Source: Eledone cirrhosa (taxonomy: Eukaryota). From it: a stretch of DNA of 64,000 nucleotides. The stretch covers positions 94,736,001-94,800,000 of the forward strand of contig OZ024746.1 of NCBI GenBank assembly GCA_964016885.1, read 5' to 3'. Both the position numbers and the translations under genes were made by a program. The notes under the pieces were generated by a model. It saw only the letters and a program-made list of their open reading frames with translations. It searched no databases and had not been told where the DNA came from. Each line of letters opens with the position of its first letter. The stretch's first letter is position 1. Shown here in pieces: positions 20,779-60,117 of this stretch.

Positions 20779-21098
20779 GGTTGGTTTTGATGTTGTTGCA
20801 GTTTATCCCTATTTCTGCCTCGTTTGAACTGATTTAGGATCAAAATATTCCAAACGTTACCATCCTGACTATATAAAATCATGTCAACATCAGGTGTGAC
20901 CTTTCTTCAACTCTAACTGGCAAGATGCGATTTGAGTCAATTTGACTACTATTCCGTACAGGTCAAGAGACCACCCATGTTTTCACGTGGTGTTGTTTGT
21001 GGTTAGGGTTAGGTGGTGGTATGTCAGTGGAATATCCACCGGTTTGGTAATAGAAACTTGGCTGCTATTTCTAGTAAATCAAGCGTCATATGAAATCT

Positions 21099-22222
21099 CA
21101 CGTTGATGGTGGCGTAACGGCCCTGGCGTTGATGTTGGCGTAACGGCTCTGACGTTGATGGTAGCGTAACAACTCTGACGTGAGTGGTGGTGTGACGGTT
21201 GACCTTGGTGCTACTGCGACAGCTTTGACGTTGGTGGTGGTGTGATGGCTTTGATGTTGATGGTGGTGTGATGGCTTTGATGTTGATGGTGGTGTAACGG
21301 CTCTGACGTTGGTGGTGGTGTGACGGCTCTGACATTGATGGTGGTGTGACGGCTCTGACGTTGATGGTGGTGTGACGGCTCTGACGTTGGTGGTGGTGTG
21401 ACGGCTCTGACGTTGATGGTGGTGTGACGGCTCTGACGTTGATGGTGGTGTGACGGCTCTGACGTTGATGGTGGTGTGACAGCTCTGATGTTGATGGTGG
21501 TGTGACAGCTCTGACATTGATGGTGGTGTGACGGCTCTGACGTTGATGGTGGTGTGACGGCTCTGACGTTGATGGTGGTGTGACGGCTATTGTTTATGGT
21601 GGTGTAACGGCTCTGATGTTGATGGTGGTGTGACAGCTCTGATGTTGATGGTGGTGTGACAGCTATTGTTTATGGTGGTGTGACGGCTCTGACGTTGATG
21701 GTGGTGTGACGGCTATTGTTTATGGTGGTGTGACGGCTCTGACGTTGATGGTGGTGTGACGGCTCTGATGTTGATGGTGGTGTGACAGCTATTGTTTATG
21801 GGGGTGTAACGGCTCTGATGTTGATGGTGGTGTGACGGCTCTGGTGTTGATGGTGGTGTAACGGCTCTGACGTTGATGGTGGTGTGACGGCTCTGACGTT
21901 GATGTTGTGTAACGGTTCTGACGTTGATGGTGGTGTGACAGCTATTGTTTATGGTGGTGTGACAGCTCTGATGTTGATGGTGGTGTGACGGCTCTGATGT
22001 TGATGGTGGTGTAACAGCTCTGATGTTGATGGTGGTGTGACAGCTCTGACGTTGATGGTGGTGTGACGGCTCTGACGTTTATGGTGGTGTGACAGCTCTG
22101 ATGTTGATGGTGGTGTGACAGCTATTGTTTATGGTGGTGTGACAGCTCTGATGTTGATGGTGGTGTGACAGCTATTGTTTATGGTGGTGTAACGGCTCTG
22201 AGGTTGGTGGTGGTGTGACGGC
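21099..22222. repeat. 26-bp minisatellite GACGTTGATGGTGGTGTGACGGCTCT, about 43 units, with a 24-bp variant
   Basis: Seen directly. Confidence 0.95.
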
Positions 22223-26969: not shown

Positions 26970-29835
26970 GGTGGCAGTATTGTACACCGCGACTGCTCTC
27001 CTGCAGTGCTACCGTGGAAGCAAGTTTCAGTTTCCTTTTCCCTCGCTCCATCTCTATGCGTAATACTCGTCTTCAGAGTGGGCGATCATTAGCGACCTCT
27101 TCCCATCTCTGGACGTCAAGATCTATTGATTTCATAACTCTCTTGCAGACGTTTTTGAAACAAAGGAGGGATTGTACTCGTGCTCTTGTGACGGATGGCC
27201 AGTTCGCTTTACAGTTCGTCATTTGGGCCCCACTCCGTCTGGCATATGATGTACGTGACCTAGCCAGCGCTTACGGCGCTTTTGGAGTTGGATAAAGATG
27301 CTGGGTATCTTGGCACAGTTAAGAACTTCAGTACTGACGATTTGGTTGGTCATCTTGATGTCCAAAATGAGTCTCATGCTACGAAGGTGAAAGATGTTGA
27401 GACGCCGGTCCTGTCTGGAGTAGAAGTTCCATGTCTCGCTGTCGTAAAGTAGTGTGCTAATGACACATGCCTTATAGACAGCAATTTTGGTGTTTGTAGT
27501 AAGTTCCCTGTTTTCTCAGGTTATTTTGGTCAGCCTGACAAATGTGGAGGCCGCTTGTCCAACTCACCTACTCCAAGGAGATGTTATCAGTGATAGTAGA
27601 GCCGAGGTAGACGGATTCGTGGACTACTTCCAGCCCGTAGTTGTTGATGGTGATGGTAGTGGGGGTTGCTTGACACTTTAGCCCAGTACGTTGGTCTCTT
27701 TCAGACAAATGGTCAGGCTAAGTTCCTGGCAGGCCTTCGTGAGATTGTCCATGAGGCGCTACATCCACTACTCAGCGTGCGTTACAAATACTGCGTTACC
27801 CTCAAACGGTATTTCTTTCATGAGTACCTGACGAACCCTGGATTTCGCTTTCAGCCTTGACAACCTAAACAGCTTCCCTTCTGATCTGGTGAAGAGATAG
27901 ACACTATGTGTTGGTATTCCAAATGCGTGTTTTTAGGTTGACTACGAAAAAAATACCAAAATGGGTGGAGGCAAGCACACAGCGCTGCTTCACATATTTG
28001 CAGATGTTAAACGCCATCAAAGTGAACGACACCTTTCATATCCGCATGAAACGACTGAACTAATCTGGGAAGTCTTGGATGACAACCAATCTTGGCAAGT
28101 ATTTTGAACAGGCTGTCTCTACTAACTAGGTCGGATGCTTTGGTGAGGTCAATGCCGTCTCTACTAACTAGGTCGGATGTCTTGGTGAGGTCAATGCCGC
28201 CTCTACTAACTAGGTCGGATGTCTTGGTGAGGTCAATGCCGTCTCTACTAACTAGGTCGGATGTCTTGGTGAGGTCAATGCCGTCTCTACTAACTAGGTC
28301 GGATGTCTTGGTGAGGTCAATGATGTCTCTACTAACTAGGTCGGATGCCTCGGTGAGGTCAATGCCGTCACTACTAACTAGGTCGGATGCCTCGGTGAGG
28401 TCAATGCCGTCTCTACTAACTAGGTCGGATGCCTTCGTGAAGTCAATGCCGTCTCTACTAACTAGGTCGGATGCCTTCGTGAGGTCAATGCCGTCTCTAC
28501 TAATTAGGTCGGATGCCTTGGTGAGGTCAATGCTGTCTCTACTAACTAGGTCGGATGCCTTGGTGAGGTCAATGCCGTCTCTACTAACTAGGTCGGATGC
28601 CTTGGTGAGGTCAATGCCGTCTCTACTAACTAGGTCGGATGCCATCGTGAGGTCAATGCCGCCTCTACTAACTAGGTCGGATGCCTTGGTGAGGTCAATG
28701 CCGTCTCTACTAACTAGGTCGGATGCCTTGGTGAGGTCAATGCCGTCTCTACTAACTAGGTCGGATGCCTTGGTGAGGTCAATGCCGTCTCTACTAACTA
28801 GGTCGGATGCCTTGGTGAGGTCAATGCCGTCTCTACTAACTAGGTCGGATGCCATCGTGAGGTCAATGCCGCCTCTACTAACTAGGTCGGATGCCTTGGT
28901 GAGGTCAATGCCGTCTCTACTAACTAGGTCGGATGCCTTGGTGAGGTCAATGCCGTCTCTACTAACTAGGTCGGATGCCTTGGTGAGGTCAATGCCGTCT
29001 CTACTAACTAGGTCGGATGCCTTGGTGAGGTCAATGCCGTCTCTACTAACTAGGTCGGATGCCTTCGTGAGGTCAATGCCGTCTCTACTAATTAGGTCGG
29101 ATGCCTTGGTGAGGTCAATGCTGTCTCTACTAACTAGGTCGGATGCCTTGGTGAGATCAATGCCGTCTCTACTAACTAGGTCGGATGCCTTGGTGAGGTC
29201 AATGCCGTCTCTACTAACTAGGTCGGATGCCATCGTGAGGTCAATGCCGCCTCTACTAACTAGGTCGGATGCCTTGGTGAGGTCAATGCCGTCTCTACTA
29301 ACTAGGTCGGATGCCTTGGTGAGGTCAATGCCGTCTCTACTAACTAGGTCGGATGCCTTGGTGAGGTCAATGCCGTCTCTACTAACTAGGTCGGATGCCT
29401 TGGTGAGGTCAATGCCGTCTCTACTAACTAGGTCGGATGCCTTGGTGAGGTCAATGCCGTCTCTACTAACTAGGTCGGATGCCATCGTGAGGTCAATGCC
29501 GCCTCTACTAACTAGGTCGGATGCCTTGGTGAGGTCAATGCCGTCTCTACTAACTAGGTCGGATGCCTTGGTGAGGTCAATGCCGTCTCTACTAACTAGG
29601 TCGGATGCCTTGGTGAGGTCAATGCCGTCTCTACTAACTAGGTCGGATGCCTTGGTGAGGTCAATGCCGTCTCTACTAACTAGGTCGGATGCCTTGGTGA
29701 GGTCAATGCCGTCTCTACTAACTAGGTCGGATGCCTTCGTGAGGTCAAAGCCGTCTCTACTAACTAGGTCGGATGCCTTCGTGAGGTCAATGAAGGTGAT
29801 GTAGAGTGGTTGCCTTTACTCTAGGCACTTTTCGA
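26970..29835 (-). mobile_element. Degenerate RTE (BovB-like) LINE interrupted by a 42-bp array
   Basis: EKC..PLYITFIDLTKAxDLVSR..LFKILAKIGC, VKQRCVLA, SLTICLKETNVL, YLGSTI motifs. Confidence 0.85.
28113..29792 (-). repeat. 42-bp minisatellite, about 40 copies, encoding IDLTKASDLVSRDG
   Basis: 14-aa periodicity in the ORFs on both strands. Confidence 0.97.
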
Positions 29836-39639: not shown

Positions 39640-40350
39640 CACATGAAAAAATATCCGTAGGTGGCACGATGGCAGTGGCCAGAAATTCTTACTCTCCTCT
39701 TACGTATAAGGACAGATATGCGTGGGAGGCCGGCATATATCTCTCTCAAAGTCAGATGTCACCAGCTTATGCTCTGAATGCGTTGAAGCAGGTGAGTGTA
39801 GGTGCCTCAAGGTAGTAGTAGTGTAGGTACCATCAAGGTAGTAGTAGTAGTGTAGGTGCCATGAAGGTAGTAGTAGTGTAGGTGCCTCAAGGTAGTAGTA
39901 GTGTAGGTGCCATCAAGGTAGTAGTAGTGTAGGTACCATCAAGGTAGTAGTAGTAGTGTAGGTACCATCAAGGTAGTAGTAGTAGTGTAGGTACCATCAA
40001 GGTAGTAGTAGTGTAGGTACCATGAAGGTAGTAATAGTGTAGGTTCCATCAAGGTAGTAGTAGTGTAAGTGCCATGAAGGTAGTAGTAGTGTAGGTGCCA
40101 TCAACGTAGTAGTAGTGTAGGTACCATCAAGGTAGTAGTGTAAGTACCATCAAGGTAGTAGTAGTGTAGGTACCATCAAGGTAGTAATAGAGTAGGTGCC
40201 AGCAAGGTAGTAGTAGTGTAAGTGCCAGCAAGATGCTTTTGTTGTTTGCATGAAAGCGTCCATGTTTCACTTCCATGTAGCAAAATTGGTTGAATTGTTA
40301 CTTGGAAGAGTCTGGTTTTGTAGTCGTAATGATTAGTTTGCCACCAGAGA
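39640..40350 (-). mobile_element. RTE-group LINE fragment containing a 26-bp array (39797-40228)
   Basis: ILLHGSETWTL..L(A/D)GTYT, then the array, then HLLQRIQSISW..RRVRISGHCHR. Confidence 0.78.
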
Positions 40351-54973: not shown

Positions 54974-55206
54974 TTCTGTTAGACGATTGAAATTTTTTAC
55001 ACAAAATGTTTTAAAACAGGTTTTTCACCTCTAGGAGGGGTAAAGATGAGCTGACCCACCGCCTGACAGTTCAGACGGAGGGTCAAGCTATACAACTGTA
55101 TCAAAATTAAGTTTGAACTCACAAAATTTCCTCAATAAATTTGAACAAAACTTCTGTGCGAAGTGAATGACATCCACACTGTAGAACAGACGACAGCTAG
55201 ATATTT

Positions 55207-58083: not shown

Positions 58084-59055
58084 CTAGACCGCCCGTGACC
58101 CAGAGTTTTAGTAGTATACTAAACCAAACCGTGACCCAGAGTTTTAGTATTATACTAAACCAAACCGTGACCCAGAGTTTTAGTATTATACTAAACCAAA
58201 CCGTGACCCAGAGTTTTAGTATTATACTAAACCAAACCGTGACCCAGAGTTTTAGTAGTATACTAAACCAAACCGTGACCCAGAGTTTTAGTATTATACT
58301 AAACCAAACCGTGACCCAGAGTTTTAGTAGTATACTAAACCAAACCGTGACCCAGAGTTTTAGTATTATACTAAACCAAACCGTGACCCAGAGTTTTAGT
58401 AGTATACTAAACCAAACCGTGACCCAGACTTTTAGTAGTATACTAAACCAAACCGTGACCCAGAATTTTAGTAGTATACTAAACCAAACCGTGACCCAGA
58501 GTTTTAGTAGTATACTAAACCAAACCGTGACCCAGAGTTTTAGTAGTATACTAAACCAAACCGTGACCCAGAGTTTTAGTAGTATACTAAACCAAACCGT
58601 GACCCAGAATTTTAGTATTATACTAAACCAAACCGTGACCCAGAGTTTTAGTAGTATACTAAACCAAACCGTGACCCAGAGTTTTAGTATTATACTAAAC
58701 CAAACCGTGACCCAGAGTTTTAGTAGTATACTAAACCAAACCGTGACCCAGAGTTTTAGTAGTATACTAAACCAAACCGTGACCAAGAGTTTTAGTAGTA
58801 TACTAAACCAAACCGTGACCCAGAGTTTTAGTATTATACTAAACCAAACCGTGACCCAGAGTTTTAGTATTATACTAAACCAAACCGTGACCCAGAGTTT
58901 TAGTAGTATACTAAACCAAACCGTGACCCAGAATTTTAGTAGTATACTAAACCAAACCGTGACCCAGAGTTTTAGTAGTATACTAAACCAAACCGTGACC
59001 TAAAGTTTTAGTATTATACTAAACCAAACCGTGACCCAGAGTTTTAGTATTATAC
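58084..59055 (-). repeat. 36-bp tandem array (27 units) of fused Helitron termini
   Basis: Minus-strand unit TATACTACTAAAACTCTG + GGTCACGGTTTGGTTTAG. Confidence 0.92.
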
Positions 59056-59340
59056 TAGACCACCCGTGACCCGTTGGGTCACGTTCACTTCATAATATTT
59101 TTTTAAAATCATGTTCACTTAAAAATAATTTTTAAATAATTAAAATATACGCAGACATGTATATAATGTGAAATGAAACTGGAAGGCCCATATATATACA
59201 AGTGTGTGTATGTATGTATATGTAAATATATATGTATGTGCGTGTGTATATTATATATATATGTGGGTGTCTGTGATCTATATACACTGGTCATAGACAC
59301 ATACGCACATATACACACACACACACATATATATATATAT

Positions 59341-59415
<75 letters not shown>

Positions 59416-59608
59416 AAGAGGTGTGGTAAGGAACCAGATGGACCATAACGCACCAAAGTACTCAATACTTAGGCTAGTAGAGTGGGTAATAGGAAAATGT
59501 TTGACTCCGACAGCAGAGCTCAGGCTGTTTCGACGGCTATTTCTGGACTAGTAGTCCAGAAGTAGCCGTCGAAACGGCTTGAGCTCTGCCATCGGGGATA
59601 AACTTTTT

Positions 59609-59659
<51 letters not shown>

Positions 59660-59801
59660 AACGAAGGAATTGTGGTAAGGAACCAGATAGACCATAACGC
59701 ACCAGAGTACTCAATACTTAGGGTAGTTGAGTGGGTAATAGGACGAGTCCAGAAATAGCCGTCGAAACGGCTTGAGCTCTGCCGTCGGGGTTATACATTT
59801 T

Positions 59802-59861
<60 letters not shown>

Positions 59862-60117
59862 ACAACACTACCAGCTCTCTTTCTCTCCATCCTTCTCTCT
59901 CTCTCTATCTCTACCCCCCCCCCCCTCTCTGTTTATGAAGGTACCCAGAAAACCCCATATCTCGGGAACCCGTGCTTCGATTTACGCGAAACTTGTTTTA
60001 TTCCATTTGTATTCCCATTTCAGGGGCAACTTCCTTTCAAAGTATTTCCCCATTATGAGCCCTATTGGCTGTATTGCATTACAGACAAACAAGCAATCAC
60101 AGACTTTTAGTAATAGA
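59055..60117 (-). mobile_element. Non-autonomous Helitron, with PLE-like hairpin inserts in its internal (TA)n (59412-59805)
   Basis: A|TCTATTACTAAAAGTCTG at the 5' end; CGTGACCC..GGGTCACG hairpin and CTAG at the 3' end; colinear with 43107-43795. Confidence 0.87.

Follow-up and report, generated by a model that had tools for sequence, protein, structure and literature searches.

How can a tandem repeat come to be built from little more than the two ends of a Helitron? The question is raised by a minisatellite on the minus strand of a 64,000-nucleotide stretch of the Eledone cirrhosa genome (the window), where positions 59054 to 58084 divide into 26 units of 36 bp and one final unit of 35 bp. 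TRF reports a period of 36, 27.2 copies and 96% matches, in agreement with the 27 units of 36 bp given in a preliminary description of this DNA. The array begins right after the CTAG (59058-59055) of a Helitron termed here host B, and its other edge is a CTAG-T junction at 58084 (hyphens mark junctions). Both boundaries had been placed correctly, as had the overall composition of the unit, namely the two Helitron ends without the terminator hairpin, adjoining a Helitron 3′ end. Chance is excluded as a source of this composition by reversed-pattern controls, which gave 0 matches. The array is small and local, and no function is known for it. Open frames across it are mechanical, 36 bp being 12 codons, and were rejected as genes.

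The unit joins Helitron nucleotides 5-22 to an 18-nucleotide, derived version (TTTGG, TTAG) of the family's 17-nucleotide 3′ end. Its 5′ half had been described as identical to a Helitron 5′ terminus at 43111-43128. The match is real, but that stretch is nucleotides 5-22 of an element that starts with TC at 43107, and the unit therefore lacks the first four bases, TCTA. All 27 units start at nucleotide 5 and none has a 5′ TC. Likewise, the 3′ half is Helitron-end sequence but not, as had been proposed, the last 18 nucleotides of the element, since the family end has 17 and the 18 in the unit are derived. TTAG closes 26 of the 27 units, so that a 3′ CTRR is not the rule in the main array. Only the right hairpin arm is present in the units, the left arm being absent. 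The same deletion junction occurs in 27 of 27 units here and in 7 of 7 units of a second array described below, three units having 1-2 substitutions.

At its edges the array has a different form. The first unit (59019..59054, minus strand), with A at position 5, meets host B through a TCTA-less CTAG-TATA junction, a type frequent among family members. The last unit (58084..58118, minus strand) has a 3′ end of canonical 17-nucleotide length closed by CTAG-T, and is likely the original end of a deleted inner element. The end of host B and the last unit thus carry the canonical form, unlike all 26 internal units.

When the flank plus the last unit served as the query, two of four raw-read runs yielded a 36-bp back-joint (4 reads with 2 starts, and 3 reads with 1 start), and tandem units are therefore present in other samples under the same species label, although these reads specify neither copy number nor which array is represented. 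The other two runs (X1, with a small word share, and X4) gave 0 reads on the array. Two internal stretches of the array fold more stably than their shuffles (z -2.3 and -5.5), which may favour slippage, and a short hairpin that is extended by TTAG and by the A allele can form at the unit junction.

Host B (59055..60117, minus strand) is a non-autonomous Helitron that runs from a slightly contracted 5′ TCTA to CTAG, with a subterminal 8-bp hairpin at 59065..59083 (minus strand). Helitrons make no target-site duplication, and judged from its flanks host B appears to occupy a single A^T site that is not duplicated. It aligns with a solo copy of the same family, copy A (43107..43795, plus strand), whose 5′ TC stands four bases upstream of its match to the unit. 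The 17-nucleotide 3′ end of the family, GGTCACGGGTGGTCTAG, has 842 exact copies genome-wide when C or T is allowed at one site, and a pattern of hairpin plus CTAG, with CTAG built into it, has 224 matches; controls gave 0 in both cases. T follows the 3′ end in 29 of 30 sampled ends, and free 5′ ends converge on TCTATATANTACTAAAANTCTG, with an A preceding the TC. The TTTGG form occurs as a Helitron end only at this locus and one other. The preliminary description had called for a search for an autonomous RepHel partner, and coding copies of ~7-8.5 kb were found with both family ends (L209, L210) or the 3′ end only (L208). PF14214 (Helitron_like_N) is matched in L208 and L210 and PF05970 (PIF1) in L208 and L209, in split frames. 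The hairpin and CTAG, the TC ends and the coding partner therefore identify a canonical Helitron family, whose partner is represented by copies with split frames.

The family's ends were not found within the stretches fetched around three long RepHel frames (L211-L213). One of these is an uninterrupted frame of 1718 amino acids with a Helitron_like_N match (L211:2658-7811), again with the family's ends absent from the fetched stretch, and the element is possibly a recently active Helitron. Many RepHel matches with near-equal scores are also present (L188-L207, on G000:C16, C19, C20 and C27). Those on C20 and C27 are spaced ~100-170 kb apart in one orientation, a pattern that suggests either a young family or RepHel genes carried within large tandem units. 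Within the window, the (TA)n tract of host B holds two copies of another short repeat (59413-59610 and 59658-59803), one of which contains a long near-perfect inverted duplication, and two long open frames lie in a GC-richer stretch, one of 754 codons (49706-51970) and one of 533 (53423-55024), both on the minus strand.

The array was initially interpreted as a concatemer produced by rolling-circle replication of a minimal Helitron, a hairpin-less circle of 36 bp. Such an origin would explain why both ends lie head to tail in the unit and why the array closes at CTAG-T. A double-stranded circle of 36 bp is below the size into which DNA bends easily, which was counted against it. According to the summary in PMC12628747, Xiong et al. 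(2016) proposed that plant Helitrons form tandem arrays without a terminator, and one assay found aberrant junctions in about half of Helraiser circles (available text of PMC5876387). Where circles of Helraiser and of wheat Helitrons are described in the available parts of PMC4778049, PMC5876387 and PMC13286980, CTAG is joined directly to TC. This precise CTAG-TC junction has 1 match in the genome and is found in 0 of the 27 units. The TCTA-less CTAG-TATA junction has 150 matches genome-wide, or 93 by a longer same-family pattern, this locus included, so that about one-tenth of family 3′ ends adjoin a family 5′ end minus exactly TCTA (93 versus 842, counted with different patterns). Chains of at least three copies exist at L056/L057, L065 and L072/L073.

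The sequences that meet at these junctions can be unlike each other. Of the 150 matches, 70 junction loci were examined; six join the 3′ end of another family to 5′ sequence of the present one, and seven have RepHel-coding DNA upstream, joined to non-coding elements. Junctions between unlike elements are not products of one circle. Median identity among the 70 loci is 80%, and the only near-identical pair is a segmental duplicate, the others being independent, so that read-through copying of other dimers was also rejected as their source. Seven loci (L055, L056, L060, L061, L070, L147 and L164) have the last 7-11 nucleotides of the 3′ end placed on truncated upstream sequence with the hairpin lost, and L056 includes a ~16-bp unit built from both ends.

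If one copy inserts into another at TCTA^TATA, an additional TCTA should remain at the outer 5′ end of the pair. At least two TCTA are present there in 11 of 16 legible dimers versus 4 of 18 solo copies (Fisher p=0.014); with illegible ends counted, the figures are 11 of 31 versus 4 of 29 (p=0.07), the 31 dimers including seven false anchors in coding DNA and two entries for one locus. A single TCTA is found in 5 of the 16 legible dimers, and host B has no doubled TCTA. Both nested coding copies in which the 5′ end was reached have multiple TCTA, three and five. Extra TCTA at the outer ends of dimers, together with the unlike partners, points to insertion into the family's own 5′ end.

The target sites used by solo copies offer a reason for this behaviour. 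TAAA starts at +8 or +9 in 18 of 43 solo flanks, and anywhere from +6 to +11 in 23 of 43, compared with 7.9 in shuffles (0 of 5000 shuffles reach this count; the interval was chosen post hoc). A preference of the family for sites that have T at +1 and TAAA close to +8/+9 is well supported, and Helraiser prefers AT-rich sequence 3′ of its insertions (PMC4778049). After TCTA, the family's own 5′ end has T at +1 and TAAA at +9. It therefore fits the target motif, and copies nest there and leave CTAG-TATA junctions. The origin of TCTA-less junctions by self-insertion at the family's 5′ end is well supported, and the junction between units is of this same kind. The rolling-circle interpretation is thus largely refuted by the junction test.

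These observations point to a probable origin of the array by nested insertion, internal deletion that leaves direct repeats spaced by 36 bp, expansion in place, and transfer of one copy to a second site. The first step is well supported, and would have placed a copy at the A^T that lies four bases inside the 5′ end of another. The inner copy would then have lost its body from nucleotide 22 to the right hairpin arm, with a 1-nucleotide G overlap, presumably producing 9-nucleotide GGGTCACGG direct repeats one unit apart. Slippage or unequal exchange of host DNA may subsequently have expanded and shuffled the units. The deletion intermediate was seen nowhere, which counts against this history. 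The window holds other minisatellites, at 28115-29792 (42 bp x 40), 21096-22222 (26 bp x 44), 8917-11029 (~28 bp x 72) and 39795-40232 (26 bp x 17), and because short tandem arrays are so common there, expansion of the seed needs no special mechanism.

Canonical edge units flanking a derived interior were counted in favour of nested insertion. By the same token, first and last ends that are unlike the interior speak against replication from one circle, and the units, ends included, do not look like copies of one template, though later turnover could blur an older signal. An unproven reconstruction of the edges begins with a chain B-X-E in which X may have had a TTTGG end, so that the interior would have been TTTGG from the outset. 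The body of X would later have been lost at the main locus, and the second locus could descend from a chain that was copied at an earlier time and terminated at an internal CTAG.

Variation among the units is consistent with part of this history. Position 5 is C in 16 units and A in 11, and the six variant alleles are all confined to the 5′ half (positions 5, 14, 16 and 18). In 26 of 26 units the 3′ half shows no change, even at its CpG (post hoc p 0.002-0.016). Across 107 family 5′ ends, strong polymorphism is restricted to positions 5 and 14; the part of this sample that was selected by junction is biased towards A or C at the former. Variants are common to several units, and all four combinations at positions 5 and 14 (A or C with C or T) are present. 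Such shared and recombined variants match turnover. Variation confined to the 5′ half is not predicted by neutral slippage; a few donor ends or a constraint by RepHel are possible causes of this pattern. Position-5 alleles are unclustered along the array (14 runs, p=0.58), which was also counted against the favoured history. Independent drawing of each unit from the family pool is ruled out by T at position 5, which is found at 29 of 93 junctions and in 0 of 27 units (hand count). At position 14 most units have C, in contrast to the G in the own 5′ ends of both hosts, host B and the host of the second array. The 5′ half is therefore not derived from the host, a further point against the circular precursor.

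The preliminary description had suggested searching the genome for the same unit. The inner junction that defines it is present at two loci only, this array and a 7-unit array 261 kb away. The latter is in the opposite orientation, sits at the 3′ end of another Helitron and closes with a unit-type CTAG-T. TTTGG with an intact CTAG is found in 7 of 7 units and in the host's own end. The TTTGG form common to both arrays indicates a common origin. The units of the second array start with the same five bases as its flank, and a change at conserved position 2, in agreement with the local flank, is fixed among them. No solo units were found elsewhere in the genome, nor were dispersed independent insertions at A^T sites. 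A genome-wide satellite or mobile micro-element was rejected, since the unit is confined to this pair of neighbouring arrays; two near-matches located on a different chromosome belong to an unrelated minisatellite of ~68 bp, and seven further matches to the 3′ half belong to an unrelated repeat.

The preliminary description had also proposed that the unit would define the minimal cis sequence. This is not borne out, as the unit lacks a 5′ TC and is not dispersed, and a 3′ CTRR is general in the second array only (7 of 7 units). The TCTA-less self-insertion junctions (93-150 matches versus 1 precise junction), the non-uniform units, the mismatch with the host and the absence of solo units therefore argue that the array does not define such a sequence, and they leave replication of a minimal circle a highly improbable origin.

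For the last step of the favoured history, in which nested insertion and deletion supply the seed, the second array itself records that the unit reached another Helitron end 261 kb away. The route may have been read-through to an internal CTAG, and ectopic conversion is equally possible. The 5′ segment of the second host ranks as the nearest of 120 to that of host B, and the middle and 3′ segments rank 33 of 110 and 89 of 121. The two hosts have no private variants in common, and the comparison did not bear out the second host as a direct copy of host B.

These comparisons also bear on a different account of what happened after the same seed had formed, in which RepHel nicks junctions that resemble ends or targets, resynthesis proceeds out of register, and read-through of the host hairpin continues to an internal CTAG. 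We regard this account as unlikely. It would fit the concentration of variation at two positions that the family tolerates, the closure of the second array at a unit-type CTAG-T, and the close rank of the 5′ segment of its host, and bypass of the end has been shown for Helraiser (available text of PMC4778049). It is harder to reconcile with the replacement of CTAG by TTAG throughout the 26 internal units of the main array, with the fixed position-2 change that matches the local flank in the second, and with the middle and 3′ segment ranks and lack of common private variants in the hosts. In addition, local hopping of Helraiser was seen in 0 of 701 events (PMC4778049). It is rather unlikely that RepHel itself builds and spreads terminus-only repeats, such that 36 bp reflects a footprint, the 5′ motif constrains the units, and the 261-kb jump occurred by read-through to a hairpin-less CTAG. 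If true, Helitron proteins would be direct generators of minisatellites, and the array would be a natural record from which their binding motif could be read.

A period of 36 bp has arisen at one other Helitron 3′ end, where the last 33 nucleotides, including the hairpin, and three flanking bases are triplicated (L126:1466-1587 on G000:C6, ~5.5 Mb from the window). This triplication arose independently and lacks 5′-end sequence. Although the shared period could be taken to favour RepHel action, its recurrence is based on two independent origins only. A templated inverted and direct duplication, also without 5′-end sequence, is present at the 3′ junction of another Helitron (L216:1490-1560, minus strand). 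These two small duplications of local origin were also counted in favour of the nested-insertion history. The search for second ends covered canonical spacing only (periods 12-41 and 42-71), so that the present array is itself unmatched and the result is an undercount. A short CTAG-repeat pattern gave 9011 matches versus 1324 in the control, with generic minisatellites swamping the matches listed.

The duplications at L126 and L216 show that direct or inverted templated copies can form at Helitron 3′ ends, which raises the prospect that the array was seeded in one step by repair. Microhomology-primed template switching at the 3′ junction would have copied a small part of a family 5′ end, with no full inner element involved, and the five bases that the second array's units share with the flank would agree with this. 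However, the 5′ half starts exactly at nucleotide 5, the nesting site used 93-150 times in the genome, and it is unlike the host's own 5′ allele, and the last unit closes with a separate end of canonical form. An origin by templated insertion is therefore very unlikely.

Rolling-circle concatemers are often invoked on the evidence of head-to-tail Helitron junctions (as in the available text of PMC5876387). The present family provides a base-level test of that reading, since ~100 of its head-to-tail junctions are missing precisely TCTA and connect unlike partners, as expected of self-insertion by a transposon whose target motif resembles its own 5′ end shifted by four bases. It also provides a testable target motif for RepHel, and an instance of the step from transposon ends to minisatellite in which the ancestral edges can still be read. 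A literature search, mostly of open-access main texts, found no minisatellite composed only of Helitron termini and no fixed self-insertion site between nucleotides 4 and 5; the available portions of PMC4224331 and PMC11934779 held nothing further on junctions.

Several known systems share individual features with this locus. Copies of FoHeli in Fusarium (PMC5148889) and of Helibat in bats (PMC4778049) insert into or beside the 5′ end of another copy to create multiple 5′ termini and composites, as here. Those self-insertions, as described in the accessible text, are single cases, whereas the present family has used one fixed site 93-150 times and seeded a minisatellite from it. The truncated plant Helitron arrays (Xiong et al. 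2016, summarised in PMC12628747) are likewise tandem pieces without a terminator, but that summary describes many intact 5′ ends with one 3′ end, and each unit here has a 5′ end minus TCTA plus a 3′ piece. DINE-TR1 and the oyster Cg170/HindIII repeats are Helitron-associated arrays that, like this one, can be carried to new loci; according to the same summary, their repeats are internal or captured, in contrast to the present array of termini outside the hairpin of its host.

The closest parallel is the formation of transposon dimers by double insertion (McGurk & Barbash, 10.1101/158386, in the portion available). Site preference makes dimers in both cases, and an alternative given by those authors for Bari1, in which deletion at the junction is followed by expansion so that every unit has the same deletion, corresponds to the history proposed here. 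Their double-insertion route needs target-site duplications. None is found in the present junction, the motif within the element's own 5′ end serving instead, and unlike double-insertion arrays the unit keeps only ~18 + 18 nucleotides. The double-insertion route to satellites is thereby extended to a transposon that makes no target-site duplications.
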